64,000 bases of DNA from Minisyncoccota bacterium (GCA_028690055.1 JAQVBZ010000005.1:379-64378); one strand, 5' to 3'. Counted from the first letter of the stretch, positions 27,459 to 47,482 are shown. Translations and numbers: made by a program. Notes: generated from the letters alone by a model not told the origin.

Positions 27459-27498
27459 GTTTTTTAATAAATATAGAAAAGGTGTGTTCTCTCACTTC

Positions 27499-27594
27499 GA
27501 GTAGCAGACTTCAGTCTGCGCGGTTGTCCTATTAGAAAAAACATATAACGTATTGTTACCTAGGATAACCACACGGGTTGAAACCCGTTACTCC
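27499..27594. ncRNA. Copy C of the repeated structured element
   Basis: GAGTAGCAGACTTCAGTCTGCGCGGTTGTCC...GGATAACCACACGGGTTGAAACCCGTTACTCC. Both hairpins carry compensatory substitutions relative to copies A and B. Confidence 0.45.
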
Positions 27595-27639
27595 CTATGA
27601 CATAACAGCCTCGCCTTACCAAATACACTTCAATACCAA

Positions 27640-30339: not shown

Positions 30340-31410
30340 TTAATCACCGTTCGCCTCCAACCTTTCCAAAATCTTATCTTTGTCCACTCCATCCGCCAAT
30401 TTCGGCTGAGCGTAGTCAAAAATCTTTACCGGCACGAATCGGATGTCCGATATTTTATTATTCTCAAAAGTAATTTCTGCAATAGCTCCCAGCCGCGTCT
30501 CCTCTGACCACATCTGATCAAAAACAAAATTACCGAGACTGTATATTATATAGCCGTCATTATATTTCTCAAAAGTCTCCACCACGTGCGGATGATGTCC
30601 GATAACCAGCTCCGCCCCGGCATCCACCGCAGCGCGCGCGAAATTCTTCTGCACTGTATTCGGGCTCGTCTGATATTCCTCGCCCATATGCATCGAGATC
30701 ACCACTATATCAGCACTATTCCTGAGCTCGGACACCTGATCTTTCATCTTATCAGTATTCGCATACGCCGTGCCATAGATATTCCCGTCAATGCTATGAG
30801 ACTGCTCTCTGGCATAGGTGTAAGCCAGAAATCCGATTTTTACGCCCTCGACCTCCTTGATGACCGGCGCATATATACTCTTTTCACTGAGCCCCGCACC
30901 AATGTGTCCGATGCCTACGCCATCAAGATTTTGCAGTGTCGCTTCCAAACCGCTGTACCCGAAATTCATTGTGTGATTATTGGCAAGCGACAGAACATCG
31001 AAACCTGCCACCTCCAAGCCCTCCAACGCTTTGGGGTCGGCACGAAAGATAAAAGACATATCGAGAACTCTTGCCCCCGGCAAAATCGTCGTTTCCAAAT
31101 TACCAAAAGTGATATCCGCCCCGCTCGTAATCTCCGCCGTCTCCAAGAACGGATATTTCCAATCCTTCTTCGCAATCATTTTCCGCTCTACAGCGCGCGA
31201 AAGCATGATATCCCCCACTGCCGCCAGGACTATCCTGCTATCATCTTCACCCGCAGGAATGTTTGCACTGCCAATTGCCACCATATTCTCCCTTTGATTA
31301 TACTTACCCTTTATCGTAAAAGATTTGCCCGGAAGATAATAAAAAGCCGGAACAGTCGCCAGGACTGCCCCCACCAGAAATAGTAATGCAATTTTCGCTT
31401 TTCGATCCAT
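30340..31410 (-). CDS. CapA/PgsA-family metallophosphoesterase-like protein (poly-gamma-glutamate capsule synthesis family)
   Basis: 356 aa. N-terminal signal anchor. Motifs LAAVGDIML, ANNH, ISMHMGEEY, GHHPHVV typical of the CapA family. Confidence 0.7.
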   Translation of the reverse strand: MDRKAKIALLFLVGAVLATVPAFYYLPGKSFTIKGKYNQRENMVAIGSANIPAGEDDSRIVLAAVGDIMLSRAVERKMIAKKDWKYPFLETAEITSGADITFGNLETTILPGARVLDMSFIFRADPKALEGLEVAGFDVLSLANNHTMNFGYSGLEATLQNLDGVGIGHIGAGLSEKSIYAPVIKEVEGVKIGFLAYTYAREQSHSIDGNIYGTAYANTDKMKDQVSELRNSADIVVISMHMGEEYQTSPNTVQKNFARAAVDAGAELVIGHHPHVVETFEKYNDGYIIYSLGNFVFDQMWSEETRLGAIAEITFENNKISDIRFVPVKIFDYAQPKLADGVDKDKILERLEANGD

Positions 31411-31655: not shown

Positions 31656-31774
31656 TGTCATTCCGAAATTTTGATACTCCAAAATATCCGGAATCTTCGT
31701 TATATAGAATCCAAACATTACAATAATCTTTTTGCAAAATATAACGAGGATTCTGAAACAAGTTCAGAATGACA
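31656..31774. mobile_element. MITE-like element copy 1 (8-bp terminal inverted repeats TGTCATTC...GAATGACA)
   Basis: 119 bp, non-coding. Internal blocks TTCGTTATATAG, ACGAGGAT, AAACAAGTTCAG shared with the second copy at 43354-43460. Confidence 0.4.
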
Positions 31775-31923
31775 CGTGCGTAATAAAATTGTTTTTACCC
31801 ATCTACTACACAATTCTTGCATAAACTTCTCATCTCGCCCCCCCCTATTTCCCCAAAAAAACACCGCATTAATATGCGATATTTTATTTGGCGGTGTTTT
31901 TTTTAAATGAGCTTGCGATGATG

Positions 31924-32628
31924 CTATTTTTTCTCTATATCTTCTTTTTTTAGTTTTTTCGTGCAGAAAAACCAATCATAGCAATGCATCTCTTCTTTGC
32001 TTTCCATACGTTCTTTGGCCACTCCGCAAGAACCGGCAGTCGGCACTATCACATCATCGCCCGGTACCCAATCAGCCGGCGTGGCGATGGAAAATTTATC
32101 AGCTGTCTGCATGGCAATCAAAGCACGATACAGTTCGTCAAAATTTCTTCCGAGACTGAGAGGATAATAAATGATCGCCCTTACTATTCCTTTGGGGTCG
32201 ATGAAAAATACCGCCCGCACCGCCTTGGTATTGCTTTCTCCGGGCTGGATCATCCCATATTTTTTCGCCACTTCCATAGTGATGTCTTCGATCAATGGAA
32301 ATTTGACCTCCACGTTTTTCATCCCCTTATACTCGATCTTCTCCTTGATTGTGCGAAGCCAGGCGATATGGCTATAAAGTCCGTCCACCGAAAGACCGAC
32401 CAGTTTGCAATTAGCATCATTAAATTCTTGTTCTCGAGAAGCAAAAGTCATGAATTCAGAAGTACAGACAGGAGTGAAATCAGCAGGATGGCTGAAAAGG
32501 ATCACCCAACTTCCTTTGTATTGCTTTGGAAAATCTATCTCGCCTTGAGTGGTAACGGCCTTGAAAGCGGGGGCTTCTTCCCCGATTCTCGGCATAGACA
32601 CCGTTTCGTCTTGATTTGTTGTTTCCAT
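31924..32628 (-). CDS. Peroxiredoxin (AhpC/TSA family, Prx6-like)
   Basis: 234 aa. Peroxidatic Cys in DFTPVCTSEF motif. Thioredoxin fold. Confidence 0.85.
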   Translation of the reverse strand: METTNQDETVSMPRIGEEAPAFKAVTTQGEIDFPKQYKGSWVILFSHPADFTPVCTSEFMTFASREQEFNDANCKLVGLSVDGLYSHIAWLRTIKEKIEYKGMKNVEVKFPLIEDITMEVAKKYGMIQPGESNTKAVRAVFFIDPKGIVRAIIYYPLSLGRNFDELYRALIAMQTADKFSIATPADWVPGDDVIVPTAGSCGVAKERMESKEEMHCYDWFFCTKKLKKEDIEKK

Positions 32629-32741
32629 ATTTTTAATTTAATGTATTAATAATACAGATTCCTCGTCTCTTTTCTCCACTACATAGTCAAATCATCATTT
32701 GTTTATTTTGCAATGTGCTTTCGAAAAAAAGGAATATTTTT

Positions 32742-33245
32742 TTACATCTTCCTACTATCATACGCCCAATGCAACACGGCTTGCCTTTGCCTTTTTCTGC
32801 AATCCCATTCTCCCGGAAAACAATTATTTTCTATCTGCACGATATGCCTTTTCATCGCTTTCCATCTCCTGATTTGTCTTTTGTCGTCTTCATGCCTTCT
32901 GCCCATAAAATAACGGCAATACCACTGGAACCAGCCCCTCGGATCATCGGGATGAATCCAGCCTTTTTGTCGCCACACAGAAAGAGGTTGGCTGGCATTC
33001 ACTCCGAAAAAATTCAGTTCGGGGTCATGTTTTTCAGAGCACAATTTCGCCTTTCTGAACCAACCTCGAGGAAATTCTTCTCTGCAATCAGTCATATATT
33101 TTCCGCCGAACACGCCAAGCTCCAACATCTCTTTCGGAGTCAGCTCCGGCTTGAAGTCCTGATCAAAATTTTTACCCGGCTTTTCTGAAAGCGCATATAC
33201 ATAGTTTTTCTGCATTTTGTCATTGACTGTAACTGTTTTTTTCAT
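32742..33245 (-). CDS. Hypothetical protein (Trp/Arg-rich)
   Basis: 167 aa. No recognised motif. RBS present. Confidence 0.45.
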   Translation of the reverse strand: MKKTVTVNDKMQKNYVYALSEKPGKNFDQDFKPELTPKEMLELGVFGGKYMTDCREEFPRGWFRKAKLCSEKHDPELNFFGVNASQPLSVWRQKGWIHPDDPRGWFQWYCRYFMGRRHEDDKRQIRRWKAMKRHIVQIENNCFPGEWDCRKRQRQAVLHWAYDSRKM

Positions 33246-33287
33246 ATTTATTTTGATAACGAAAAAAACATCGTGGCTTTTTCACAG

Positions 33288-34049
33288 TTAGTCATCCTTT
33301 TTCTTGATGCTTATAAACCCCACCACCCCAGCAAATACCATCAAACACAAAACGACAGTCCATATGATATTCGGATACTGACCGGCAAAGCCGCTCTGTG
33401 AAAGGTGTTTGGCAAGGATGGCTCCATAAGCCCAAATGAACACGAGCCCATAAGGAACAAGGCGGTCACGCAACATACGCAACGAGCCGATGAGCGCTCC
33501 GACCAAAAGCACCACGACCGTCCAAAAATTATCAGAGATACCGAACCCGTTCCAGCCGAGAGAGACCAGAAAAACAGTAATATTAGCAATCGAGGCAACA
33601 GTAATCCAGCCGAAATATATGCTGAAGGGTAAACATACCAGAAAGCGCTCATTTTTGGTAAGCTCGCCAACACGCACGATATCGGCAATCCGGATAAGCG
33701 TAAGCAATAGTCCGATCATTATGATCACCGAGAGCCAGATATAATCATAGTGCCAAGCAACTATCCACGAGGCATTCAAAAGAGCGTTCACGATAAAGAT
33801 GCGATTTACTCGCTCCACCAATTCATCTTTATCGCGCCGCAACTGATAAATGACATACACCCCGAGAAGCGCATAAATGAGTCCCCAGATGGAAAAAGCA
33901 TAACCGGCTGGAGCAAACAGGTTCGCATAATTGTCCGATATAGCCCCAGTATCTCTCCCGCCAAGCGGAAGCGCCACTGCCAAATAATTGACCGCAATCA
34001 TTACGACATACGCCAATAGCGTTGCTATCTTTATGATTTTTGTGTTCAT
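33288..34049 (-). CDS. Hypothetical polytopic membrane protein (Trp-rich)
   Basis: 253 aa, about 7 hydrophobic segments. A TspO-like call was considered but is unsupported. Confidence 0.5.
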   Translation of the reverse strand: MNTKIIKIATLLAYVVMIAVNYLAVALPLGGRDTGAISDNYANLFAPAGYAFSIWGLIYALLGVYVIYQLRRDKDELVERVNRIFIVNALLNASWIVAWHYDYIWLSVIIMIGLLLTLIRIADIVRVGELTKNERFLVCLPFSIYFGWITVASIANITVFLVSLGWNGFGISDNFWTVVVLLVGALIGSLRMLRDRLVPYGLVFIWAYGAILAKHLSQSGFAGQYPNIIWTVVLCLMVFAGVVGFISIKKKDD

Positions 34050-34239
34050 AATTTTATTTCGCTTAATGATTAAGAATATCTAAACTCCCTGTTTCCTTTC
34101 CTATTGCATCTCATAAAAAAAGAAACAAAAATTTAAGCGGAGCTATTTTTAAAGAACCGTAATCAGATATCGTGCCGCTATTATCATATTTAAGAAATTC
34201 ATAATACCTTCATATCAGATATCCTTTGCCGGTAGTTGC

Positions 34240-36366
34240 CTACTTGCAAAAATTTATAAATTCATCTTTAGTAAGAGTTTTTTCACAACCTGCGACATAC
34301 TGAAAAATCCGCCAGCTATCATCGCGCAAAATCGGCAAGTAGAATATCTGCTCGGTGAGTTTAGACGCTTGCTTATACGCTTTTTTCAATTCTTCCAATT
34401 TCGTTTTATAGATATTGTTATCAAAACCACCAACCATACTGGACGAGATATTGACACTTTTCACTTCAAAAATATGCACCCGATCAAAACTATCTTTCAT
34501 CACAAAATCAGGATAGGAAGAATGCAGTGTTCCAAGATAATACTCAAACTTTATCGGCGAGTTAGCAACATAATTTTTACCCCACAGATATACTTGTTTT
34601 GTTTCTAAAAGTTCTGGCTCTTTTTCACCAAACAAATCAACCGCTCCAGCTTTCGGGTTCTTCTTGCCAACCTCTACTCTTTTACCAACTCGCCCATCGC
34701 CAACTACCACATCATCTTTTGCCAGGTCTTTTAATATCTCCGTCCATTCTCGCTCCGCCTCGCTATCAAAAGAAAATTTATCTTTTCCGTCGTTTCGTTT
34801 CCACACCCAATCGCCGATATTCATATAATTTCCATTGTCTGTATAGTGCGAAGTCGACGCGAAAGATACTTCTAAATCTTGCCCTTTTTCGTCTTTCACT
34901 ACTTCCATGCTTTTTTCATAATCATTCACATATTGACCGCTTTCATTTGCCACCGCCTCAATATTCTCGACAAACTCCCTCCATTTTGTGTAATTTATAG
35001 CATATTTTTCACCCATCTCTCTTACGCTGTTTTCGGCTTTCACAAAGTCTCGCCACAAAGTAAAAATAGAACTCGGAGCAGATACGACAGACTGTTTTTT
35101 CAAGAACGTCGCCAGACTAAAACTAGCTTTTTTAGTCAAAGGTTTTAGCCGTGTTGTTTTAATCTTGATCTCATCGGTGATGATTTCGCTGTCTTGCCAC
35201 AATTTCACGCCAAAACTCTTTCGCAAATCTTCGGGAACAATACCCCAAATCCATGCAGTCATGGCTAACTTTTGTGCGTCTTCTGATAATGATTCAAAAT
35301 CAAGTAGTCGCGGGTTGCGCCTTACTCGACCCATAACTTGCTCATCCAGCTGCTTACTCTTGCTATCCCGCATTTGGAAAAGCATACAAGCGCGAGGAAT
35401 ATCCCACCCTTCGGTGATTACCATTTTGAAAATAATAATATCAATCGTGCTGGAATTTTCTTTGGCATAATCTTTCCACTTGCTCACGGGCAGCTTTTTA
35501 GCCTTAAAAGTGTCGTTCGTATCGCACTGTTTCTCGTCGTTGACAATCAGCATCCATTTCAAATCCGTGTGTTCGGCTTTTGCCAGCTCTTTTTTTATCT
35601 CGGCAATTTCCTCGTCCGCCTTGTCTTTGTTGCTAATCTGGATAATGAGGCATGGGTTTAGGCCAAGCAGGTTGCGATATTCCGTTTTCACTTCTTCAAA
35701 CTTTTCAATCGCGCCAGCCACCTTTATATCTTGATCATCAATGAGTTCAATATCTTTTATCAATTTTGCATTCACTGCGTCATCGTTTTTAATCTCTACA
35801 TCGGGGTGTTGCCCACGCGAGAGTTTTGGTGTGGCGGAAAAATTGTATGTTTTGGTAAAAAACTTTTCTGATAAATTGTCCAGATTGTTGGTGGCAATAT
35901 GGCATTCATCTTTAATGAGGTAAACTTTTTTATCTAACCCGCCGGTGATTTTTCCACCAGTCATATTGTGCAAAAAGCCTTCCATCGCCCCTTGCATGAG
36001 TCGTCCGCCTTTTTTATACAAATCTCTGGGCAAAAGATAGACATTGTAATCAGTCGGCACGAACAACCGTTCTTCGCCCGCAATCTGGCTACTGATTAGA
36101 TACGGCTTTAATTCCAGGAAATTGCCTTTTGCCGAGTACTCTTGAAACTTCTCATAATTTTGTGTGGCTAAATCACCTTTTGAAAGCGTGGACACTAGAA
36201 AAATAACATTTTTGTCCACTGACAAAATGCGATTCATCATCTCCGCCATCATATAGGTTTTACCGCTTCCGGTCGGCGCCTTGAAAGTGATCTCATCTTG
36301 TGTGACAGTGAGTTCAATCAAAGCAGATACGGCATCTTGTTGTAGGTCTATGGCTTCTTGTCTCAT
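34240..36366 (-). CDS. res: Type III restriction enzyme Res subunit (SF2 helicase + endonuclease)
   Basis: 708 aa. Walker A APTGSGKTYMM, DEAH-like IKDECHIAT, helicase motif VI VMGRVRR. Immediately downstream of mod. Confidence 0.8.
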   Translation of the reverse strand: MRQEAIDLQQDAVSALIELTVTQDEITFKAPTGSGKTYMMAEMMNRILSVDKNVIFLVSTLSKGDLATQNYEKFQEYSAKGNFLELKPYLISSQIAGEERLFVPTDYNVYLLPRDLYKKGGRLMQGAMEGFLHNMTGGKITGGLDKKVYLIKDECHIATNNLDNLSEKFFTKTYNFSATPKLSRGQHPDVEIKNDDAVNAKLIKDIELIDDQDIKVAGAIEKFEEVKTEYRNLLGLNPCLIIQISNKDKADEEIAEIKKELAKAEHTDLKWMLIVNDEKQCDTNDTFKAKKLPVSKWKDYAKENSSTIDIIIFKMVITEGWDIPRACMLFQMRDSKSKQLDEQVMGRVRRNPRLLDFESLSEDAQKLAMTAWIWGIVPEDLRKSFGVKLWQDSEIITDEIKIKTTRLKPLTKKASFSLATFLKKQSVVSAPSSIFTLWRDFVKAENSVREMGEKYAINYTKWREFVENIEAVANESGQYVNDYEKSMEVVKDEKGQDLEVSFASTSHYTDNGNYMNIGDWVWKRNDGKDKFSFDSEAEREWTEILKDLAKDDVVVGDGRVGKRVEVGKKNPKAGAVDLFGEKEPELLETKQVYLWGKNYVANSPIKFEYYLGTLHSSYPDFVMKDSFDRVHIFEVKSVNISSSMVGGFDNNIYKTKLEELKKAYKQASKLTEQIFYLPILRDDSWRIFQYVAGCEKTLTKDEFINFCK

Positions 36367-36375
36367 AGTTATTTC

Positions 36376-38028
36376 TTATTTCTTTTCAAGGGTTTTGGTG
36401 GTGCCTTCAAAATTTTCACACACCCATTTTATTTTTTCATTCACTCCAAGCTTTTCCTTGCCATACAATGTTTCGTCAATTACATCAAAAGGAGTTTTAT
36501 CTTTTGTTGCTTCAAAATTTGCAACTGTTGAAATATCATAGACATCAAGATTATCGCCGAGAGGCTTGTTTTTCTCATTCCACTTGAAGTCTTTGGTGCC
36601 GTCATAGCACTCACCGGTCATCACCCGTTTAAGTCGTTTGCTGGTTGCGTCATACGCAATACCTTTTGGTGTGGCACTTGTTTTTTCATTATTTGTTACA
36701 AGAATAAACTGGCGATTTTGATTATCTTTATTCATTTCTAAAACGGCTTGTCCAGTTGTTCCACTTCCGGCAAAAAAGTCCAGCACAACTAAATCGGCTT
36801 CAACATCTTCACTGCTTTCACACAGTTTAATTAATTGTTTGATTAATTCTTTAGGTTTAGGGTAGTCAAAAATGCCTTTTCCCATAATAGCAGACAAGTC
36901 TTTGTTGGCGTTGTCGTTTGAAAATTCGTTATCAACGAGCCTTAATGTTGATACAGGAGCAGTTCTAGCAGATTCAATGACTTGATATTTGCCGCCAATC
37001 TTTACGATTTTCGCATTTTGATAAGTCTTTGTATAAATTCGGTCGCCCTTGACTTCGATAAAGCCTTGTTCTTTACCAAACTCATACAAGTCCTTACTCC
37101 ATCTCCATCCCCAGTCCGCACGCCCGTGCAAACCACTCTGTCTCTTTTCGTAAGCCTTTTTATCGCCACCAGCGTAAAAAACTCGTCCGTCAATTGAAAT
37201 AGGATAGTCAAGTGTTTTAACCCAACCTAAACTATCATAATCTAATGTCTGATTTAGTTTGTATCTTCCACGGGTTGCCACATATTCATCTTCATTTGAG
37301 TAACCTTCATCATCGTGCAGTTGAGCAAAAAGCCCTTTCTTTGCCGTGCAAGTATAAGACAAAACATAATCGTGATTGAGCGCAATGGCAGTTGAAGATT
37401 TACCGCCTTTTTTGGTAACACGAGGGAACGAACAAGCAAAATTACCCTCTTCAAACACTTCATCAAAAAGACCCTTCACATACGCCTGATTTTTGTCGTC
37501 AATACTACAAAATATCACGCCGTTATCACTTAAAAGCTGGCGGGCGAGGACAAGGCGTGGGTAAAGCATAGAAAGCAAATTGTCCCGAGTGATAGCGTTT
37601 TCATAATTCGTCTTGGCAAACTCGCCCATACTATCTTTGCCGTATGGTGGATCAATATAAATCACATCAATCATGCCGCGGTATTGAATCAATAGGTTTT
37701 GAAGCGCATCATAATTGTCGCCGATGATGAGCTTGTGCGTCAGGGCGTTTTTGTCTTGTACAAAACTTAATTTTTCATTTTTCTTAAAATGCTTTATTGT
37801 GTCGGTCATTTTCTCCAGTCGTTTGTCAAAATGAAAGCCGGTGCGTTTATAGGTGGTGCCGAGTTCGGCAATCATTATAGCCTCGTTAATAGTTTCGGCA
37901 TTTGTGATGAGTTTTTTCAAAAGATCGGCATTCGTCTTTTCGATAATTTTGTCGACAATACGCTTGTCAATCTCGGCGATGAGATCGTCTTTAACTTTTT
38001 TTATTTCATTTGTCATAGTCTTTTCCAT
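36376..38028 (-). CDS. mod: Type III R-M Mod subunit (beta-class N6-adenine/N4-cytosine DNA methyltransferase)
   Basis: 550 aa. Motif IV DVIYIDPPYG precedes motif I LDFFAGSGTTGQA (beta permutation). Gene order mod-res with a 9-nt gap. Confidence 0.8.
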   Translation of the reverse strand: MEKTMTNEIKKVKDDLIAEIDKRIVDKIIEKTNADLLKKLITNAETINEAIMIAELGTTYKRTGFHFDKRLEKMTDTIKHFKKNEKLSFVQDKNALTHKLIIGDNYDALQNLLIQYRGMIDVIYIDPPYGKDSMGEFAKTNYENAITRDNLLSMLYPRLVLARQLLSDNGVIFCSIDDKNQAYVKGLFDEVFEEGNFACSFPRVTKKGGKSSTAIALNHDYVLSYTCTAKKGLFAQLHDDEGYSNEDEYVATRGRYKLNQTLDYDSLGWVKTLDYPISIDGRVFYAGGDKKAYEKRQSGLHGRADWGWRWSKDLYEFGKEQGFIEVKGDRIYTKTYQNAKIVKIGGKYQVIESARTAPVSTLRLVDNEFSNDNANKDLSAIMGKGIFDYPKPKELIKQLIKLCESSEDVEADLVVLDFFAGSGTTGQAVLEMNKDNQNRQFILVTNNEKTSATPKGIAYDATSKRLKRVMTGECYDGTKDFKWNEKNKPLGDNLDVYDISTVANFEATKDKTPFDVIDETLYGKEKLGVNEKIKWVCENFEGTTKTLEKK

Positions 38029-38032
38029 AGTA

Positions 38033-38248
38033 TTATTTCATTAATTCATCAAGCGAAACACCGAGAGCGTCCGCAATTTTTTTCGCTGTGTCGATTCTCG
38101 GATCAGAAGTCGAGCCGGATTCGATTTTTGAGATCGTATGAAAAGCCAAATCGCTTTTTTTAGACAAAGTATCTTGCGACAATCCGGCTTTGAGCCGTAG
38201 CTTCTTGATATTTTCACCGATTTTTGATTTTTCCATTATTATAGACAT
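38033..38248 (-). CDS. XRE-family HTH transcriptional regulator (C-protein-like controller of the R-M operon)
   Basis: 71 aa. LRLKAGLSQDTLSKKSDLAFHTISKIESG helix-turn-helix. 4 nt upstream of mod. Confidence 0.65.
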   Translation of the reverse strand: MSIIMEKSKIGENIKKLRLKAGLSQDTLSKKSDLAFHTISKIESGSTSDPRIDTAKKIADALGVSLDELMK

Positions 38249-38380
38249 ATATAAAACCTTACATCTATAACTTTACCAAGACTGGGCTATTTTGTAAACA
38301 AAAACAGAGCTTGAAATCGGCTCTGTTTTTAAATATTTTTCCCGGCTGCAGTAGGTCTTTAAAAACTCTATGCCCCCAGT

Positions 38381-39799
38381 CTAAAGATGATCAACCACGG
38401 AGAGTAAATATTCCCTTTCTCTCCATTCTGTAGTGGCAACTTGTCCGGTGTCATAAAAAGAATATACTGCTGAGTAAAGATATGCATTATCAGTAATCAA
38501 GTCGTAATAGACCCAGGCCGTCTTCCCTTTTTTGGTGGTGACCACATCCGGATCGCCGAACTTATCCGATATATGCTCTTGATAAATGGAATAATGCGGA
38601 CCTGTGGAATAGAGATATTCGTCCCAACTCTTAAACTCGCTAAGGCTTATTTGCCCTTTTTTCTGAGTTGTCGGTTCTTCGGTTACTGTTTCCGTTGTGG
38701 CTTCGATTGCCGTTTCCGTTGTTGCTTCTGCCTCCGCAGGCTCTTCTGCTGTTTTCTCTGCTTGCGAAGAGCTGGTAATCCCTAAGATGTTTTCTACATC
38801 CTCGGTTGTAACGGTGCTGTCGGTGACACCCTGTTCTTTCATCCATCCGTCCACTTCTTCTTTTTCTAGAATTGAAACTTCAGTGGCAGGTTCCGGTTTT
38901 TCTTTCGTGGGAGTGGGAAGTTTGATACCGATCACTGACCCGGATTGGATAGTTCCATTGAGCTGATCGGCTCCGAAGATTACCGCGTTTAGTTTATCGA
39001 CTCCTTTGACCATATTGGTAGGCAAGGTTGATACCATCAGGATAGCTGCTGCCGGCTCTGTTACCTTTCGGACATCTCCCACGACAGAAGATATCTTGTT
39101 TTTATCACCTAAAGCTATCTTAGCGGCATCATCGGTAATTTCCAAAGTTAAGTCAGCGCCACTTACAACTACGGCTGTCTGAGCAAGCGCTCCGGATGAG
39201 GCAAGGGCTGCCGTTCCGCCTGTAGCTACGATTGTCCCGACAAAGACTGTGACCTTACTGGTATTCTTGACGATTGTCGCTCTGGTCTCGCAAGCTTGGA
39301 ATACATCTCCTTCTTCTCCATAGGCTTCTCTGCTCATTTCATCTTGAGATTGATTGAGAACTAGCTGAGCCATTTTGGCATCGACTCCCAGTAAATTCGC
39401 GAGTGTCATGATTTTTTTACCCGTTGGAGCTTTATCGACAACCCTTGTAATCTCTTCTTTGGTGTAAGCCTGAGCTGTTTTGACAGAACCGAGACTGACC
39501 TTTCCTTGTGTCGTTCCTCCCGCTAATTGTTCCAATTCAGCAGCGTTCTTTTCCAATTCGCTCCATCCTTCGATGATAGCCGACATTTCAGTATCCCAAC
39601 TGTCATAATCCCCATATTCTTTAGCATTAACCAAAACATTGTCAGTCCTGTAGCGAAGAGCGCCATACTGCTTGGACATGCTCAAAGTCTTTTCCAAAAG
39701 GACTTGTTCTTGATCCGTTTCTTGAGGTTGCCTGAGGAGTAAAAACGCCCCTAGTGTCAAAGCGAGAACCCCGACTGAGATAATGAGGATTTTTTTCAT
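38381..39799 (-). CDS. Hypothetical secreted protein
   Basis: 472 aa. Signal peptide MKKILIISVGVLALTLGAFLLL. Thr/Glu-rich C-terminal low-complexity segment. Confidence 0.5.
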   Translation of the reverse strand: MKKILIISVGVLALTLGAFLLLRQPQETDQEQVLLEKTLSMSKQYGALRYRTDNVLVNAKEYGDYDSWDTEMSAIIEGWSELEKNAAELEQLAGGTTQGKVSLGSVKTAQAYTKEEITRVVDKAPTGKKIMTLANLLGVDAKMAQLVLNQSQDEMSREAYGEEGDVFQACETRATIVKNTSKVTVFVGTIVATGGTAALASSGALAQTAVVVSGADLTLEITDDAAKIALGDKNKISSVVGDVRKVTEPAAAILMVSTLPTNMVKGVDKLNAVIFGADQLNGTIQSGSVIGIKLPTPTKEKPEPATEVSILEKEEVDGWMKEQGVTDSTVTTEDVENILGITSSSQAEKTAEEPAEAEATTETAIEATTETVTEEPTTQKKGQISLSEFKSWDEYLYSTGPHYSIYQEHISDKFGDPDVVTTKKGKTAWVYYDLITDNAYLYSAVYSFYDTGQVATTEWREREYLLSVVDHL

Positions 39800-39809
39800 G
39801 ATTTAGTTA

Positions 39810-39834
39810 GAATGATTATTGTAATCATTCTAGC
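39810..39834. promoter_or_regulatory. Perfect 11-bp-arm palindrome TAGAATGATTA-ttg-TAATCATTCTA upstream of the secreted-protein gene
   Basis: Read directly. Lies 11-35 nt upstream of the ATG at 39799 and could be an operator or a 5'-UTR hairpin. Confidence 0.3.
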
Positions 39835-40235
39835 ATTATTAGATTGATAGAGAAAGGGTGGTATGATTTTACTATCAGAAGCCCGAGAATCTGCCGATAT
39901 GGCGGAATTAAAGAATAATTAACTTTTTAACATATTTATGATATTGTTTTAGTGGGTGAAACAAATGGAAAGTGTCCATATAAAAATACAAGAACAAGTA
40001 ACAAAAATATTAGCTTGCAGTGTATCGCTATTCCTTATAGTTTTCTTTGTCTCAGAATTCCTGAGGATAGGAATGCCGGAAAGAGAAGTCCTATTTTGCT
40101 CATTAATATCTTCTTTCCTGTTTATACGTCATTCGGATAGAAAAAAAGCTAATAAAAACGATTAGGTAATTAACAAAAGTTTTTTGCCTGCCTTTTTCCA
40201 AGCCCACAAATCATTTGCGGATTTAGAAATAAAAA

Positions 40236-40266
40236 TAACGGATTTAAGTCCGTTATTTTTTTGTTG
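40236..40266. terminator. Rho-independent terminator (ATAACGGA-tttaag-TCCGTTAT + T7), bidirectional
   Basis: 8-bp stem with U-runs on both strands. Downstream of the dsbD-like gene stop at 40344. Confidence 0.5.
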
Positions 40267-40343
40267 GATTTGATTTATTGCGATGCGACAATGACTACTT
40301 TTCTTCCCCCGCGAAATATCAAGAAGATGGAGTATAGAATGCT

Positions 40344-41597
40344 CTAACCGAACATCAGCCATTCCGGCTTGAATATCAGCATCAATCCGATAGCAAGCAT
40401 CGTCACGCCTCCTATCAGTCGGGAAGTTCTGGCATACTTGGTTGTCACTCCGGTCATCTGCAAGGTGACCATCGCAATGAAGAAGATAAGCAGATCGTCG
40501 AGCATAAAAAAGAAAATATACAGTAAGATATACAGATAATAATTCCAGCCGGTCATTTCATTCAAGGCCAAAACCTGGGTATAGACCGCCGGTAATCCCG
40601 CCGAGCAGATCAGCTCTACCAGATTGACGGCAAAAGCCAAAACGATTATTCCCCCCAATGCCAATGGCAGGCTGTTTTGCTGGACGGCAAGTTTCAATTT
40701 TTCGAATACTTTCCGTTTCTTCTCGCTGTTGGTAACTTTGCAGCCACTTTCTTTATTAAATATGAATTCCTTCAGGCTATAACTGCCTCCCAGTAACGCT
40801 AAAACTCCGATCAAAATCCTGACCCAAACTACGAACCCTAAAAATAATATCAAGTTAAGCCAAGCGGCCATAAACATAAAATAAACAGAAGCGGAAGCGA
40901 CGATAAAAGTGGCGCCCAGAATCCACATCCTTTTTCGGTCCTTCATTCCCAGAAGAAGACTGATAAGGAATAAAAGGGTCCACATAGCACAAGGATTAAA
41001 TCCATCCAAAATCCCCATCACTATAGTCAGAACGGGAAGAGAAAAATTGAGGGCATTCACTTCTCCTATGAATGGTAATGTGATTATCTTTTGGTTCTCA
41101 TCAGGAGCACATTCTTGTGTAGCAGTAGATTCCACTTGAGCCACATCAATACCCTCTCCCCCTCGTTCAGATGATATATTCTCTCGGTTTGCACCCAAGA
41201 TATCAACCAAAGAGTCGGGACAAAGAACCAGAGAACATTTTTTGACCGTTTCTTTAATTTCTTCCGATGTCAGTCCCTCGACATAGCCGATAAAAGGTTG
41301 ATCACCGATAATCAAAAAAGGTACTCCATCAACTTTCGCTCCCAGCTTGTCGGCTGCTTCCCGAAGCAATGAAATATTATCTCGATCGTTGTAGATTTCA
41401 TATTCATAAATTTCCAAGCCGGGATATTCGCTTTTCAGTACGTCATTAAGATACCGTCTTTCCTGAGCACAATGCGGACAACTGTCGCCGTAGAAAAGAT
41501 AAGCATTGATCGGCAAGACCTCGGCTGACACCGATCGGGACTGGAGTGATAATGCAAAAAGGAAAATTATCAGTATTCGCTTATAGAAAATCTTCAT
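40344..41597 (-). CDS. Thiol:disulfide interchange membrane protein (thioredoxin-like domain fused to DsbD/CcdA-like transmembrane domain)
   Basis: 417 aa. Signal peptide, CPHC thioredoxin motif, polytopic C-terminal half with FNPCAMW and LICSAGLP cysteines. Confidence 0.7.
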   Translation of the reverse strand: MKIFYKRILIIFLFALSLQSRSVSAEVLPINAYLFYGDSCPHCAQERRYLNDVLKSEYPGLEIYEYEIYNDRDNISLLREAADKLGAKVDGVPFLIIGDQPFIGYVEGLTSEEIKETVKKCSLVLCPDSLVDILGANRENISSERGGEGIDVAQVESTATQECAPDENQKIITLPFIGEVNALNFSLPVLTIVMGILDGFNPCAMWTLLFLISLLLGMKDRKRMWILGATFIVASASVYFMFMAAWLNLILFLGFVVWVRILIGVLALLGGSYSLKEFIFNKESGCKVTNSEKKRKVFEKLKLAVQQNSLPLALGGIIVLAFAVNLVELICSAGLPAVYTQVLALNEMTGWNYYLYILLYIFFFMLDDLLIFFIAMVTLQMTGVTTKYARTSRLIGGVTMLAIGLMLIFKPEWLMFG

Positions 41598-41599
41598 AA

Positions 41600-41869
41600 T
41601 TATCTATCCTTATTCTTAATAATAGTATCTATCAAATCTTTTTTAGAAACCTCGCCGTTCAAGCGCAAAAACTCTTGCCCCGCCTGATCCAAAAAGATAA
41701 AGACCGGCAAGACATCATTGATGCCGTATTTTTCTACCGCTTCCTTGTCTTCATCAAAGTCATAATATTCCGTTTGTAGCCAAGGATTCGCTTCTTCTAT
41801 CTCTTTCCACCTCGGCTTCATAACCAGACAGCCGGAACACCAAACCGCACCGAATTTTAGAACTTTCAT
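41600..41869 (-). CDS. Thioredoxin-family small protein
   Basis: 89 aa. WCSGC active-site-like motif. Confidence 0.6.
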   Translation of the reverse strand: MKVLKFGAVWCSGCLVMKPRWKEIEEANPWLQTEYYDFDEDKEAVEKYGINDVLPVFIFLDQAGQEFLRLNGEVSKKDLIDTIIKNKDR

Positions 41870-41870
41870 A

Positions 41871-42632
41871 TTATTTATCTTTAATAATTATATCGGCTAA
41901 AGACAAGAATATCTTAGCCGTTGATGAATCATTATCTTTTACTATGGGGTGCCCGCTATCACCGGAAATAACGACTTTCGGATCGATAGGAATAGCGCCC
42001 AAGAATGGAATCCCGTATTTTTGGGCGATTTTTTCGCCACCGCCACTCTTGAATAAATCGACTATCTTCCCGCAATGAGGACATTTATAACCGCTCATAT
42101 TTTCGATCAGCCCGACTATTTCCAATTTCAATTTCTTGGCAAAGTTTATCGCTTTCATCGAATCGAGCAAAGAAACGTCTTGCGGCGTGGTTATTACGAC
42201 AGCCTTAGCGCCAGGCAGCAACTGAGCGATTGATAAAGGCTCATCTCCGGTTCCCGGTGGCGCATCGACTATCAGATAATCCAAATCACCCCAGTCGATT
42301 TGATTGACGAATTTCTCAATCAATTTCATTTTCGCCGGACCTCGCCATATGATCGGCGTGTCTGTCTCGGGAATCAGATAAGAAACCGAAATCAAAAATA
42401 AATTTTCATTCACCTCGATGGGCATTATCAGGTCTTCTCCATAAGACAGCGTCTCTTTGTCCTGAACGCCCAACATCAGCGCCAGATTCGGTCCGTGGAT
42501 ATCGGCATCAAGAAGTCCGACCCTTAATCCTTTCTGCGATAAGGCTACCGCCAAATTAGTGGCCACTGTCGATTTGCCAACACCGCCCTTTCCGGAAAAT
42601 ACGAGCAATACATTTTTTATTTCGTTCGGCAT
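41871..42632 (-). CDS. Mrp/NBP35/ApbC-family Fe-S cluster carrier ATPase
   Basis: 253 aa. Deviant Walker A GKGGVGKST. C-terminal CPHCG motif. Confidence 0.85.
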   Translation of the reverse strand: MPNEIKNVLLVFSGKGGVGKSTVATNLAVALSQKGLRVGLLDADIHGPNLALMLGVQDKETLSYGEDLIMPIEVNENLFLISVSYLIPETDTPIIWRGPAKMKLIEKFVNQIDWGDLDYLIVDAPPGTGDEPLSIAQLLPGAKAVVITTPQDVSLLDSMKAINFAKKLKLEIVGLIENMSGYKCPHCGKIVDLFKSGGGEKIAQKYGIPFLGAIPIDPKVVISGDSGHPIVKDNDSSTAKIFLSLADIIIKDK

Positions 42633-42754
42633 ATCTGAAAATTAATTGATATTGATGAACATATTGATAATATTTTCGGAAAAAATCAAAATTATCCGAT
42701 TTTTGAGAATACTATGACAAGAAACCGGCAATGACACACAAAAAAGCTGGCGCA

Positions 42755-43084
42755 TCACTGGTGCCTGATTATTTTGATGGCCTTACCCACAGTCAAAGCC
42801 TCCGCGATCTTCTTGTAAGCGGAATATAGGATACGTTGATATGTGCTTGTCGAAGTATGCATCTTTTCGGCTGCCTGCTGCTGGTCGAGATCCTCCATAT
42901 ACCTGAGGCGATAGGCCTCAATTTCCTCCAGCGAAAGCTCTATGGTCTGCAAATCTTTCATAGGTATGCCCTGTGGCTTGAAATAGACAACGTCCGGATT
43001 AAATTTAATCATCTTGCAAAAGCAATTATGCGGTCTCGACATAATATCTGAAATTATCTGTAATTTATTAATTAATGGTCGCAA
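42755..43084 (-). CDS. DUF134/UPF0251-family predicted DNA-binding protein
   Basis: 109 aa. Sigma-70 region-4-like HTH pattern (LSLEEIEAYRLRYMEDLDQQQAAEKMHTSTSTYQRIL). Confidence 0.55.
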   Translation of the reverse strand: MRPLINKLQIISDIMSRPHNCFCKMIKFNPDVVYFKPQGIPMKDLQTIELSLEEIEAYRLRYMEDLDQQQAAEKMHTSTSTYQRILYSAYKKIAEALTVGKAIKIIRHQ

Positions 43085-43353
43085 GAAAAGATTCTTAGGT
43101 TTTGTCTTGTCAGAAGAAACCGGTCCTCCGTTCTTGATATATTTCTTATTAAAAAATATTTATTTTTTATCGTCTTTAATATGAGTATATGCCCATAATA
43201 AAATCGCGTCAAATAGAAAAATAGATAAACTCAAAGATTCTTCTCAGTTCGTTCCTGATATGATCCGATTCTAACATCTTGCCATAATACTTCCGTGTCT
43301 TGATACTTGTATAACTTCATATTCGCTATTGACGATATATTATTTTCATCGTC

Positions 43354-43460
43354 TGTCATTCCGGGTTTGACCCGGTTTTTTCGTTATATATAGTTAATGT
43401 TGTACGATATACCGTTTATACATAATATGACGAGAATGCTTAAACAAGTTCAGTATGACA
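43354..43460. mobile_element. MITE-like element copy 2 (TGTCATTC...GTATGACA terminal inverted repeats)
   Basis: 107 bp. Shares termini and internal blocks (TTCGTTATATATAG, ACGAGAAT, AAACAAGTTCAG) with copy 1. Internal CCGGGTTTGACCCGG palindrome. Confidence 0.4.
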
Positions 43461-43860
43461 CGGTTCTGAAATCATATTGATGTAAAAAAAGGACAATCAA
43501 GCGATTATAACATTGTCTTTATCCAAGAGCTGTCGCTCTAAACACACACCGGCAGAACCGGTAGTTTTTTATTAGCCACCTTCGCGAACTTACTAGCGAA
43601 CTATGTCACGCCGTAGATGCGCTACTGCGTACCGAAGGCGGAGAGGGCGAAACGACATTAGAACTATGGATTAAGAAGGGTTAGCTAAGGAATCGAACGT
43701 TAAACAGCTAAAAAAATCTATCCAGATGAGATTGTGCCGGGGCGAGCGACTAGAAATTTTTTGCATCTGTGTTGCGGAACAATACGATTAGACAATTTAA
43801 ATTTACTCAATGAAAAGAAGCAAGATTTCTCTTGCTTCGCTATAAAATTTCTTACACTAA

Positions 43861-44100
43861 CTATTTTTTTATTTCATAATATTCTCCGTTTTTCGGATCA
43901 TACTGGAAACCACTGGCAAAAAATAGTGTTCCCGTACGACTTAGATCAGGTTCCCCATCTTTAGTTCTACCCACGAAAGATAGAACTATATCATTTTCGG
44001 ATGGATCCGCACCTATCAACGTCCACTTTTCCCATCCTCCACGGACACGGGTATTGAATACATCCCCAATTTTTATTTTACCATTGGTCATTTTGGTCAT
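43861..44100 (-). CDS. Hypothetical small protein
   Basis: 79 aa. Start region has a tandem ATGACCAAA duplication. Confidence 0.3.
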   Translation of the reverse strand: MTKMTNGKIKIGDVFNTRVRGGWEKWTLIGADPSENDIVLSFVGRTKDGEPDLSRTGTLFFASGFQYDPKNGEYYEIKK

Positions 44101-44559
44101 TTTGGTCTTCCTCTTCTGGATTTTTTATGAAGTGTTTATTTATTCTTATGTTTCATGTCGCGAGTATAGAGCTTGCGATATTCAACTGTGCATTTTATCA
44201 TACTTTTACCATATGTCAAGATTATCTTAGACAAAAGATCAAATCCTATTGAGTCTGCATAAAGTAATAGCTTAAACAAGCAATCATTTTTTTTGGAGAG
44301 GGCGGGATTTACCCCTCCGGGGCATAAACTTCTCATCCCGTTATCCTATCACACCAAACAAAAAACCATATAAAAATATGGTCTTTTATTTGGCGGGCAT
44401 CCTCGGGCTGGAACCGTGATCTTTGCAATCCTAGTAAGGCTTTTTAGTAGTTTTTTGGGGTCTTAGAAAATAAGATCCTCGTGCGCTTGTCTTTTCTAAA
44501 AAGTGACAAATGTGACATGATTCTAGGAGTAAATGTTACATTAATATGTAACATTCCTT

Positions 44560-46179
44560 TTAAATTTTTCCTAAAATAGTTTCAAATTTATTTAAAATTT
44601 TAATAAACTCATCATTATAATTAGCTTGTAATATTTTACTATCAGCAAAATTGCTATAATCTATTACGTTTATTTTTTCATCCGCTTTATATTTTTTTGC
44701 TTGATATTCTTCATCTTTAAGAGTTGCGGTTAATAAAACTTGTTTATTTAAACTTTTGTAAATGTCCAGCATTTTTTCCTCTTTCGATGAAGCGATTTCA
44801 CCATCTCTAAAAGAATCAACAATAATTGGAAAGTCGTGATTCATTTCTTTGTTAAGAGAAACTATTTTAGTAAAATAAAACTCTTGGTTTTCACTACCCG
44901 AATATGTTTCCGTACCTTTTGTAAATATATCACTAAAAACTAAAACGCCGTTTTCATCAATTTCATTATAAATACTATTCATACTAGCAATGACATTTCG
45001 CATAAAACTTTTCTGTTGTTCAGCCTTTTCTACGTGCTCTTCATTTTTCTTTTTTAATTCCTCCAATATTCCTTCAAGTTTTTTATTGGCTTCCCAAATT
45101 TCTTGTTCTATTTGCTTGTCGTTAATGATCTCCTCTCCAAAAATCATGTAGTCTCTATAATCAGGAGGAGTTTCCACAATCTCTTTGTTAAGCTGCTCCT
45201 GCTCGGAATTGATCTTACAAGCTAGCTCTTCAATAATTTCTTCTTTAATCTTAATATCTTCTTTTATTGATTCTATAATCCTTTTCTTTACGTGCATATT
45301 GCTGATTTCAAAATTATATTCAGAGTTAGCACTAGCAAATATTATCTTATCGCTTCCGCAATTTGCGCATTTAATTTTTCCTGTATCTATAAATCTATTC
45401 AATGAATTAAGTTCAAATAACAAACTCTCCAATTTTATCTTTCGATTATTTTCTCTTGTCTGTTCAGTTCTGTATTTTGCAATATCGCTATTTATTGATT
45501 CCATAATCCCTTTCTTTTTTTCATATTCCTCCCTGTTTATATTCTTTGATGAATACTCTGCGATTTTAGGATTAGCTTTTATGGTTTGTAGCTTCTTTTT
45601 TAAAGATCTTATCTTGCTCTCTATTTCAATTTTCTCTTCTTTTAAGTTTCGTTCTTTAAATTTATCTAAAACAACATTATCTATATCCATCATGGAATAT
45701 AGCATATTTTTGAAATCATCTTTATCATACTGAGCTGCGGATATTAATTTTGATGTATTTCTTTTGTCTTGACCAAGGAAAAATAATTCATAAAGCAATG
45801 AAGGGGCAACGATCCCTTCGTTACCGTCTTTAGAAATCCTTGGAAGCTGATAAATTTCTTTATCAAAGAAATGCTTAAATTCACTAATGCTGTTGCATAT
45901 TTGATATGCATTCTCACTCTTTACAATAATAGAATTCTTCTTTCTTAAAAATTCGTACTCTTTCCCGCTTATTTCAATCTTTGTATAAAAATAATATTCT
46001 CTGTAATTAAAACTTTCAGGAAATATTGGATCTTTCCCAATTGCGTACATAGCGCCCTGCATTAATAATGTCTTGCCCTTATTATTATCATTACTAAATA
46101 TTATATTCACCCCATCCTTTAATCTATCCTCAATGAATGCTTCCCTTAAATTACCTATAGCGATCTTTTTAATTCGCAT
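44560..46179 (-). CDS. SMC/Rad50-like ATPase with central coiled-coil and CxxC zinc-hook (Lamassu LmuB-like candidate)
   Basis: 539 aa. N-terminal SMC_N-type head with Walker A FSNDNNKGKT. Long coiled-coil with KIKCANCGSDK at mid-length. C-terminal signature-like TYSGSENQ and Walker B PIIVDSF. Very AT-rich gene. Confidence 0.6.
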   Translation of the reverse strand: MRIKKIAIGNLREAFIEDRLKDGVNIIFSNDNNKGKTLLMQGAMYAIGKDPIFPESFNYREYYFYTKIEISGKEYEFLRKKNSIIVKSENAYQICNSISEFKHFFDKEIYQLPRISKDGNEGIVAPSLLYELFFLGQDKRNTSKLISAAQYDKDDFKNMLYSMMDIDNVVLDKFKERNLKEEKIEIESKIRSLKKKLQTIKANPKIAEYSSKNINREEYEKKKGIMESINSDIAKYRTEQTRENNRKIKLESLLFELNSLNRFIDTGKIKCANCGSDKIIFASANSEYNFEISNMHVKKRIIESIKEDIKIKEEIIEELACKINSEQEQLNKEIVETPPDYRDYMIFGEEIINDKQIEQEIWEANKKLEGILEELKKKNEEHVEKAEQQKSFMRNVIASMNSIYNEIDENGVLVFSDIFTKGTETYSGSENQEFYFTKIVSLNKEMNHDFPIIVDSFRDGEIASSKEEKMLDIYKSLNKQVLLTATLKDEEYQAKKYKADEKINVIDYSNFADSKILQANYNDEFIKILNKFETILGKI

Positions 46180-47194
46180 ATATGTTGTCTTTAATTATTG
46201 AAATTATAAATAATAAACTTTTTCGATCAAGATGTTTTGATTTGATGTTAATGCTACTTTCCAAGCCGCTGTATACCCTATAAATATCAGCTTTGGGATT
46301 AATATCAAATTGATTAATGGTGAATTCAAGAACTTTCCAAAATTCTGGATTTGAATTCTTATTAAAAAAAGCTCTTGCCAGATTTGCTTTGCAATCCTGT
46401 ATCAAGTCTTTTGTTGCTTCTGTATCCAAGTTATCCGTTTCATTTTTGAAAGATATGGGAATTGATTTGTATTCGAAAATATCACATCCAAGTACTCTAT
46501 TAATAATTAAGGTGTAAATTTCTTTTTTGAATAAATGTCTATTAAACTTTAAAACATCTTCAATTTTTTCAATTTGTTCATTCTCTATACAACTGTTTTT
46601 CTTAGCTGATTGAACATCTCTAATCTCTTCAAAAATATTTTGATAAAAATCATTATTTCTAATTTTTCTGTCTTTAAATTTGGTTATTCTTTTTATATAG
46701 TCGCTTATATCTTTACTATCTTGGACAAAAATAATTTTATTAAAAAAAGATTCGGCATCTTCTTCATTGTTTTTTCCGGTATTGTTTTTAAGCTTATCAA
46801 TGAGGCCATTTTTTATTCTTGATCTTGTATCTTCCTGGAAATTATCCATTCCGAATTCGTCCAGATTTTCTTTAATCAAATATTCTTTGTTCAGTTTAGA
46901 GACAAATAATATAAGGCAGCAAAAATTCAATCCTGATATATGGTTTTTGTACAAAGTAAACAAAAATTCTCCAATTTGTTTTGGATAAAATTTTGAATAA
47001 TTCTTAGATTGGATATCCCATAGCTCGCTATAGCTTTTATCTATGCCTGTAACATCGTTAAAACAATCAATTGTAAATAAATCGACCTGATCACGATCTT
47101 TTCTAAAGCCGACGAGATATAATAACGACTTCGTCTCGAATTCGGTTGCCTTTTTATTATTTCTCTCGGTATTGGTGAAAGTATATATACTCAT
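46169..47194 (-). CDS. Hypothetical protein co-operonic with the SMC-like ATPase (candidate effector)
   Basis: 341 aa. Overlaps the downstream ATPase gene by 11 nt. N-terminal D...D...(D/E)xK-like residues (FTIDCFNDV...WDIQSK) give a weak, unverified nuclease-like hint. Confidence 0.45.
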   Translation of the reverse strand: MSIYTFTNTERNNKKATEFETKSLLYLVGFRKDRDQVDLFTIDCFNDVTGIDKSYSELWDIQSKNYSKFYPKQIGEFLFTLYKNHISGLNFCCLILFVSKLNKEYLIKENLDEFGMDNFQEDTRSRIKNGLIDKLKNNTGKNNEEDAESFFNKIIFVQDSKDISDYIKRITKFKDRKIRNNDFYQNIFEEIRDVQSAKKNSCIENEQIEKIEDVLKFNRHLFKKEIYTLIINRVLGCDIFEYKSIPISFKNETDNLDTEATKDLIQDCKANLARAFFNKNSNPEFWKVLEFTINQFDINPKADIYRVYSGLESSINIKSKHLDRKSLLFIISIIKDNIYAN

Positions 47195-47482
47195 TAGATA
47201 AATCTATAAAAAATACGGTTTAAACTTAGCATATTTTAGCTAAAAATAACTGTTCTTGGCAATTAATAGGCGATAATATTATTTTATTTATATTCGAAAG
47301 TTGCTTTTATTGTTCTTTGGTTAAAATTAATAGATTAACCGTGTAGGGCAGTTCATTATTAACTTTGTTTATAACTTTACCAAGATCTAACTGTTTTGTA
47401 AACAAAAACAGAGCTAAAATAAGCTCTGTTTTTAATTCTCTCTGTGTTGACACGATGTTGCAGTGTTAAGTGAGGATATCTT

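Follow-up and report, generated by a model that had tools for sequence, protein, structure and literature searches.

Two intergenic elements in a Minisyncoccota genome are probable inverted doublets of Ssn-related hairpin repeats

Introduction

The stretch of DNA analysed here is a 64,000-nt segment of a Minisyncoccota bacterium genome (GCA_028690055.1, JAQVBZ010000005.1:379-64378), referred to below as the window, and it contains two related non-coding elements of identical orientation, copy A (119 nt) and copy B (107 nt). Copy A has the terminator of a peroxiredoxin gene on one side and, on the other, the promoter region of a CapA-like gene, and copy B is located 270 nt upstream of a DUF134/Mrp-like/thioredoxin gene set. 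CapA homologues assign the organism to the Patescibacteria (CPR). As the original prediction for this DNA had stated, the DNA around both copies is intergenic and AT-rich; its GC content is ~36%, compared with a window mean of 40.6%. That prediction described the pair as copies of a miniature inverted-repeat transposable element (MITE). What kind of element do the two copies represent? We describe here the anatomy of the copies, which points to pairs of oppositely oriented hairpin repeats, and the occurrence of the same hairpin in other genomes.

Hairpin repeats that are recognized by a small nuclease have been reported by Chenal et al. (Nat Commun 2025, PMC11893778). The NTS (dRS3) repeat of Neisseria, CGTCATTCCCGCGMAVGCGGGAATCYRG, is a member of a wider class of hairpin repeats termed Ssn-related motifs (SRM), which lie on either side of genes that encode small proteins with a single GIY-YIG domain, such as the 94-residue SsnA (CDD cd10448), encoded in Neisseria in the arrangement NTS-ssnA-NTS (PMC11893778). 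SsnA binds the NTS only as single-stranded DNA (ssDNA) and in a single orientation, and cuts a few nucleotides upstream of it (PMC11893778). The base most critical for binding is the C immediately 3' of the palindrome, and cleavage is governed by the 5' GTC trinucleotide, as established by mutagenesis; in N. meningitidis, transformation by NTS-carrying DNA is reduced (PMC11893778).

Results

Similarity of the two elements

Both elements were found at the predicted positions with the predicted ends and shared blocks. Copy A starts with TGTCATTCCG and ends with CAGAATGACA, and its terminal inverted repeats match at 8/8 positions. Copy B has the same start, TGTCATTCCG, and ends with CAGTATGACA, which gives a match of 7/8 (TGTCATTC vs TGTCATAC). 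In both copies the terminal inverted repeats extend imperfectly to ~17 nt, and the blocks TTCGTTATATA, ACGAG(G/A)AT and AAACAAGTTCAG are common to the two. A global alignment of A and B has 83 identical positions in 122 columns (68%), and its score of 118.5 is ~12 standard deviations above that of shuffled sequences (48 +/- 5.8). The 3'-terminal 19-mer, AAACAAGTTCAGWATGACA, is present at two sites in the window (0.02 expected), as is the composite pattern TCGTTATA-N(27-57)-ACGAG-N7-AAACAAGTTCAG (0.00 expected).

Anatomy of the two elements

Each element consists of a left hairpin unit on the plus strand, a spacer and a right hairpin unit on the minus strand (Table 1). All four units start with T-GTC-A, and in both elements the left unit is of a CCGG type and the right unit of a CTGAA type. 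Because the left unit lies on the plus strand and the right unit on the minus strand, their GTCAT heads look like terminal inverted repeats. The 8-bp inverted repeats of the original prediction are thus real as sequence but constitute the heads (T-GTC-A) of two inverted hairpin units and not transposon ends. The shared block AAACAAGTTCAG is likewise the loop and 3' arm of the right unit in reverse reading. Moreover, the tail YTCGTYATAT follows all four units and forms an inner palindrome (TCGTTATAT / ATATRACGA) that joins the two units of each element. No third copy and no lone unit was found in the 64-kb window beyond A and B.

The units of copy A retain the features of a complete hairpin. 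A-left has both critical flanks, the 5' GTC and the 3' C, and an enlarged loop that pairs with itself; its ssDNA fold has an energy of -6.7 kcal/mol (z -2.5). A-right, which carries the 3' C as well, forms a stem of 7-8 bp with an ssDNA fold of -5.3 kcal/mol that was equalled by 0/200 shuffled sequences, and its form is identical to that of units from other phyla. In copy B, the C 3' of the palindrome is replaced by T in both units. B-left still pairs over its inner 5-6 bp (CCGGG/CCCGG) and folds as ssDNA at -6.5 kcal/mol, better than shuffles, but its outer arm has been converted together with the 3' C (AATC to TTTT). B-right has two arm mismatches and has lost its fold, given that its ssDNA energy of -0.4 kcal/mol was matched by 132/200 shuffles. 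Copy A is an intact doublet and copy B a decayed one. Part of the decayed B-left unit, followed by a run of T, matches the pattern of an intrinsic terminator (Table 1); a plus-strand gene is absent upstream of it.

We propose that each element is probably a head-to-head doublet of SRM (NTS-like) hairpin repeats. Since A and B have the same left and right unit types and the same inner palindrome, the comparison points to a single duplication of the entire doublet, in the manner of a REPIN (repetitive extragenic palindromic, REP, doublet forming a hairpin) or a BIME (bacterial interspersed mosaic element), by a route that we infer, and that B decayed afterwards. Copy B would then be an inactive relic.

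In the collections searched, the composite pattern was found only in A and B of the window, in copy A of seven same-species contigs and in a metagenome record of this very contig. Copy A is unchanged in the seven same-species contigs (98.4-99.1% identity) and copy B is identical in one other sample. Among the samples with this species are JGI 3300028602 and ENA ERZ27250894, and it occurs in landfill and groundwater. An orthologous empty site was not found, as same-species contigs are identical over A and over B, and in relatives with 65-70% CapA identity synteny is gone on the peroxiredoxin side. One of these relatives has a canonical hairpin unit elsewhere.

Table 1. Positions of the two elements, their parts and other features of the window
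Feature	Position	Strand	Description
Copy A	31656-31774		Intact doublet
A-left unit	31656-31696	+	T-GTC, arm ATTCCG, 23-nt loop (small hairpin in itself), arm CGGAAT, then C-T
A spacer	31697-31747		51 nt; inner palindrome TCGTTATAT (31697-31705) / ATATAACGA (31739-31747), lineage-specific
A-right unit	31748-31774	-	Minus-strand reading T-GTC ATTCTGAA CTTGT TTCAGAAT C-C; perfect canonical unit
Copy B	43354-43460		Decayed doublet
B-left unit	43354-43379	+	T-GTC ATTCCGGG TTTGA CCCGGttt T
Terminator-pattern match in B-left	43361-43385	+	CCGGGTTTGACCCGG then TTTTTT
B spacer	43380-43433		54 nt; inner palindrome TCGTTATAT (43381-43389) / ATATGACGA (43425-43433)
B-right unit	43434-43460	-	Minus-strand reading T-GTC ATaCTGAA CTTGT TTaAGCAT t-C
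CapA-like gene	30340-31410	-
Peroxiredoxin gene	31924-32628	-
Strain synteny break	34164-34244		Same-species contigs from other samples lose synteny
Type III restriction-modification genes	34240-38028		ResIII and N6_N4_Mtase
GC-richer patch	43560-43700
tRNA-like match	43689-43699		11-nt T-loop consensus
Low-GC block	44000-48442		GC 0.27-0.32
Large open reading frame	44560-46179	-	No Pfam match
Large open reading frame	46169-47194	-	No Pfam match
Peptidase_C14 gene	47483-48442	-	Caspase-like
~110-nt repeat family	2420-2531; 26469-26580; 27498-27595; partial 26380-26415		GGAGTAGCAGGTTTTAACCTGCGCGGTTGTCC ... GGATAGCCGCGCGGGATGAATCCCGCTACTCC
~65-nt repeat	38266-38330; 47370-47435		Hairpin AAAAACAGAGC...GCTCTGTTTTT
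~216-nt tandem repeat	16631-18587		~7 copies, 213 / 219 nt alternating
LOOT RNA (RF03000)	57539-57660	+	Rfam match, full length

The hairpin unit in other genomes

Public collections were scanned with AAACAAGTTCAGNATGACA, which yielded 167 listed matches, and 154 loci were fetched for gene analysis. The pattern was found in more than 120 genome contigs, a lower bound, and in 34 viral contigs; by our own rough estimate for an 18-mer at uniform composition, ~17 matches would be expected by chance in the genome collection. The listed genome contigs belong to Bacteroidota, many Patescibacteria lineages, Nitrospirota, Spirochaetota (Treponema), Ignavibacteria, Alpha- and Gammaproteobacteria, Elusimicrobia and others, including one Nanoarchaeota metagenome-assembled genome (MAG). 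In these loci, the AAACAAGTTCAGNATGACA block is the reverse reading of TGTCAT-SCTGAA-CTTGT-TTCAGS-ATCT, and 157 of the 167 matches are complete perfect hairpins that consist of GTC, 8-nt arms and a 5-nt loop.

A consensus was built from 115 units of the fetched loci that had not been chosen by the search pattern. The unit of ~27 nt comprises T-GTC, an 8-nt arm (A-Y-N-C-Y-G-A-A), a 5-nt loop (CTTGT, TTTAT, CTTGA or CTCGT), the complementary arm T-T-C-R-G-N-R-T and a final C-T. The C after the palindrome, which the scan did not demand, is present in 113/115 units, and T precedes GTC in 87/115. The arm varies at positions 2, 3 and 5, and seven arm variants recur (ACCCTGAA, ATTCCGAA, ATCCCGAA, ATGCTGAA, ATCCTGAA, ATTCTGAA and ATGCCGAA). 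In total, 273 perfect hairpins with 8-nt arms and a 5-nt loop are anchored on GTC, compared with a median of 5 for other trinucleotides. We found no literature report of the exact unit sequence.

The units are predominantly extragenic, with 17% of matches within long open reading frames (ORFs) vs 78% of random positions. They form head-to-head doublets in 59 of the 167 listed matches, with spacers of 3-63 nt, a range that includes the 51 and 54 nt of the window doublets, and they also occur singly and in tandem. In many doublets the left and right arms differ from each other, so that each unit pairs with itself and the ends do not pair with one another.

Several individual loci deserve separate mention. 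A comparison of two related viral contigs (L137 3182-3449 and L134 2463-2468) revealed a 268-nt block, absent from L134, that comprises three or four clustered units and a duplicated flank, so that clusters of units look like hot spots for indels. L152 differs from L146 by a 367-nt indel at a distance of ~20 nt from the nearest unit; a clean single-unit insertion was found in neither comparison. In the viral contigs L126, L146 and L152, a reverse unit is located within the loop of a larger hairpin, GGGATAATATA ... TATTATCCC (for example, L146 7236-7290), as if it had been inserted into a pre-existing stem-loop. In L077, a 19-mer pattern match checked by eye falls within the coding sequence of a RarA-like ATPase (MgsA_C and AAA domains), and the peptide ...ILKQVQDD... 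is its encoded product; homologues of this RarA/MgsA gene are found in one cluster with it in L115 and L120.

GIY-YIG genes near the units

When all 2356 ORFs with 90 or more residues in the 154 loci were clustered without bias, a single recurrent non-housekeeping family emerged, which consists of single-domain GIY-YIG proteins of 91-110 residues (9 genes in 8 loci) with PF01541 as their only domain. The next clusters contain ABC ATPases, a response regulator, FabG, ribosomal protein L20, RarA and similar genes. In five of the eight loci (L066, L075, L076, L094 and L120), units are located on both sides of the GIY-YIG gene at distances of tens to ~230 nt. In L154 a unit cluster is found directly downstream of the gene, in L052 one unit lies 90 nt upstream of it on a contig of 461 nt, and in L026 the gene has no unit inside 600 nt. 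A search of viral contigs for GIY-YIG relatives gave at least two confirmed loci among the matches listed, and in one of these (L169) the gene lies between units of a GC-rich variant with the loop CTTGT.

The catalytic spacing in the alignment of eight GIY-YIG proteins, Y-11-Y-47-E, is the same as that of Y6, Y17 and E64 in SsnA, and the proteins resemble SsnA in length; both features would fit membership of cd10448. A PDB sequence search for an Ssn structure returned no Ssn entry and only spurious WD40 matches. In a Berkelbacteria MAG (L059 5190-5408), a GIY-YIG-like ORF ends after 53 residues and is followed 15 nt later, at the contig end, by a forward unit and the first part of a reverse one; this GIY-YIG-like gene may be interrupted by a doublet.

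Neighbouring features of the window

Between copies A and B, same-species contigs from other samples lose synteny where this strain has the type III restriction-modification genes, which are strain-variable: other strains have AAA and Peptidase_S8 genes or Flavodoxin_5 genes in their place. On the right of B, the GC content declines from 0.44 to ~0.30 over 1-3 kb. The original prediction placed copy B exactly at the junction of a core-like and an accessory region, which holds in terms of composition only and approximately; the one strain synteny break that could be mapped is found at ~34164-34244 and not at A or B. The low-GC block right of B, which carries two large ORFs and a caspase-like gene, is possibly a defence island. 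In the GC-richer patch between B and this block, a significant fold was found on neither strand. A tRNA-fragment attachment site beside B was considered and rejected because the match is only the 11-nt T-loop consensus, of which 1.4 are expected by chance.

The window contains further repeats. For a second, unrelated family of ~110-nt intergenic long hairpins, the consensus fold is predicted to contain 31 pairs, including several G-U pairs on the plus strand, and Rfam gave no match at gathering score. A ~65-nt repeat with a 46-nt core of 87% identity forms a terminator-like hairpin and lies between minus-strand genes, with one copy in the restriction-modification region and one in the low-GC region. 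The ~216-nt tandem repeat probably encodes a repeated 72-residue protein domain. The LOOT RNA match has a score of 73.9 bits, above the Rfam gathering score of 46.4.

Discussion

The anatomy of A and B, the cross-phylum family to which their units belong, its extragenic bias, its organization in doublets and its association with GIY-YIG genes were observed directly, and the mechanism that we propose is drawn by analogy from the Neisseria system (PMC11893778). At an ssDNA stage, during replication or during DNA uptake in transformation, each unit would fold into a hairpin. The hairpin would be bound by an Ssn nuclease, a small protein with a single GIY-YIG domain, which would recognize the C immediately 3' of the palindrome and nick the DNA a few nucleotides 5' of the hairpin in a GTC-dependent manner. 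In Neisseria, incoming ssDNA that carries the repeat is restricted in this way (PMC11893778). By the same analogy, we infer that an Ssn protein acts on copy A in this genome.

How do the repeats spread? The unit-ssn-unit arrangement suggests a possible IS200-like selfish origin of repeat spread, and the repeat family may well be spread by an enzyme acting in trans. A more specific version, in which the whole doublet is a REPIN-like mobile unit copied by the GIY-YIG Ssn protein through a single-stranded intermediate, is speculative and rather doubtful. If it were true, Ssn and its repeats would represent a second, independently evolved system of a domesticated nuclease plus a miniature element, and this system would operate even in reduced Patescibacteria genomes, in phages and possibly in DPANN archaea.

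Three observations weigh against the assignment of A and B to the SRM class. First, a GIY-YIG/Ssn gene was found neither in the 64-kb window nor in ~30 kb of additional sequence from same-species contigs and related genomes (L155-L168). Second, the window has just four units per 64 kb, compared with hundreds in SRM-rich genomes. Third, the published degenerate SRM pattern, HGTCWYN(0-2)YYVSBRHN(0-5)WNVSBRGN(0-2)RNCYNB, which was built from 29 genomes with GC-rich stems (PMC11893778), matches no window unit, nor does it match the canonical CTGAA-CTTGT-TTCAG class: the canonical sequences GTCATCCTGAACTTGTTTCAGGATC and GTCATTCCGGGCTTGACCCGGAATC are missed and the NTS itself is matched. This pattern is an operational search tool and not a biological definition.

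The doublet form raises the alternative of REP or REPIN elements of the RAYT (REP-associated tyrosine transposase) type, in which the doublet is moved by a domesticated IS200/IS605-like Y1 (HUH) transposase and not by a GIY-YIG protein. The units do have a 5' tetranucleotide, GTCA, next to a palindrome, and frequent inverted doublets, and an analogy between SRM and REP/REPIN-type elements was also drawn by Chenal et al. (PMC11893778). However, no Y1-transposase-like family is recurrent near the units, whereas GIY-YIG is the family that is both recurrent and flanked by units, and the conserved flanks of the unit fit the recognition positions of SsnA. We regard a RAYT-type origin as improbable.

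A structured small RNA gene on the plus strand, or a riboswitch, was our initial reading of the elements. In this model, the transcript forms a multi-stem junction, with P1 built from the two ends, a variable P2, a long P3 and a small P4. Copy A indeed folds well as plus-strand RNA (-33.3 kcal/mol, z -5.9), P2 is paired in both copies although the two P2 sequences are entirely unlike, four non-Watson-Crick positions of the long stem are G-U on the plus strand and would be A-C on the minus strand, and terminator-like hairpins follow both copies rather than a plus-strand gene. However, the apparently compensatory P2 is the loop of the left unit, which was enlarged by insertion in A, and four of four wobbles on one strand are not significant (p ~0.06, one-sided, by our own estimate). 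The fold of copy B is unremarkable both as RNA (z -1.6) and as DNA (z -1.2), and Rfam gave nothing at gathering score and nothing relevant at E values up to 10 over A or B. Two DNA hairpin units and a shared tail explain all of the conserved sequence. This reading was dropped because the conserved blocks belong to a cross-phylum DNA hairpin unit and lack an Rfam match, and a small RNA gene is accordingly unlikely to underlie the two elements.

A classical MITE would be a non-autonomous deletion derivative of an insertion sequence (IS) that encodes a DDE transposase and has TGTCATTC terminal inverted repeats, mobilized in trans by a cut-and-paste mechanism. The matching ends, the small size, the non-coding AT-rich sequence and the presence of two copies are consistent with this model, as are several matches in other genomes that lie at contig ends, a typical position of multi-copy repeats. 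A target-site duplication is nevertheless missing from both copies, as the flanks ...CTCTTATT / CGTGCGTA... of A and ...CATCGTC / CGGTTCTG... of B contain no direct repeat. An autonomous IS with matching ends did not emerge in a non-exhaustive search, in which the recurrent clusters within +/-4 kb of the motif in the 154 loci were GIY-YIG proteins, ABC ATPases and housekeeping proteins and included no transposase family. Furthermore, the supposed terminal repeat belongs to a self-contained hairpin unit that also exists alone and in tandem, and many doublets have unlike left and right arms that pair within the unit and not between the ends. Neither further composite copies nor a matching IS was found in the data covered, an outcome that the original prediction had itself named as a refutation; to that extent the classical MITE does not hold, and we consider it highly improbable. 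What stands of the non-autonomous transposon in the original prediction is a repeated, palindromic, extragenic element whose ends come from a multi-copy family; its derivation from an IS as a MITE bounded by terminal inverted repeats does not.

The possibility that A and B are att-like direct repeats that bound an 11.8-kb integrated island is remote: the two copies share an orientation and bracket the type III restriction-modification genes, and GC drops to the right of B, but the copies are just 68% identical, no integrase lies between them, and seven same-species contigs, all of which keep copy A, lose synteny 2.4 kb inside the bracket, which contradicts an island bounded by A and B.

For annotation, A and B should be described as inverted pairs of Ssn-type ssDNA hairpin repeats, and the labels MITE and small RNA gene are unsuitable. 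The significance for this particular genome is modest, given one intact and one decayed doublet and no partner gene in the sequence covered. On a wider scale, the AT-rich variant GTC-AYNCYGAA-loop-TTCRGNRT-C is common in Bacteroidota, candidate-phyla-radiation bacteria, several other phyla and viral contigs. Because the published SRM pattern misses this variant, the reach of the Ssn/SRM system has probably been underestimated. In addition, the GIY-YIG genes located between AT-rich units, together with those units, constitute a candidate enzyme-substrate pair with a new specificity for ssDNA tools.

Compared with known systems, A and B resemble the Correia elements, MITEs of Neisseria, in that they are non-coding and intergenic, have inverted ends and fall near the size range of ~100-150 nt. 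In Correia elements and other MITEs, the inverted repeats are true terminal repeats, the target site is duplicated and a related IS exists; none of these features was found for A or B. With REP, REPIN and BIME sequences, the present units share a short palindrome next to a conserved 5' tetranucleotide, an inverted doublet as the unit of duplication, extragenic placement and the lack of target duplication. REPs are usually limited to one species or genus, in contrast to the present unit, the sequence of which is conserved across phyla, and the enzyme of the REP systems is an HUH/Y1 protein, whereas the enzyme family linked to the present unit is GIY-YIG.

The closest likeness is to SRM and the NTS. 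Like these repeats, the present unit is an oriented hairpin with GTC directly 5' of a palindrome that starts with A-T and with C directly 3' of it; it is extragenic and multi-copy, falls within 20-50 nt and crosses phyla, and the unit class has small single-domain GIY-YIG genes between its repeats. The present unit differs in its AT-rich 8-bp arms (AYNCYGAA) and 5-nt loop, and the published SRM pattern does not match it. The window units differ further: they are confined to two composite doublets that carry an additional inner palindrome, copy B in decayed form, and the window has no ssn gene. In our reading, repeats of this kind have been known since 2025, and the AT-rich variant and its doublet form are additions to them.

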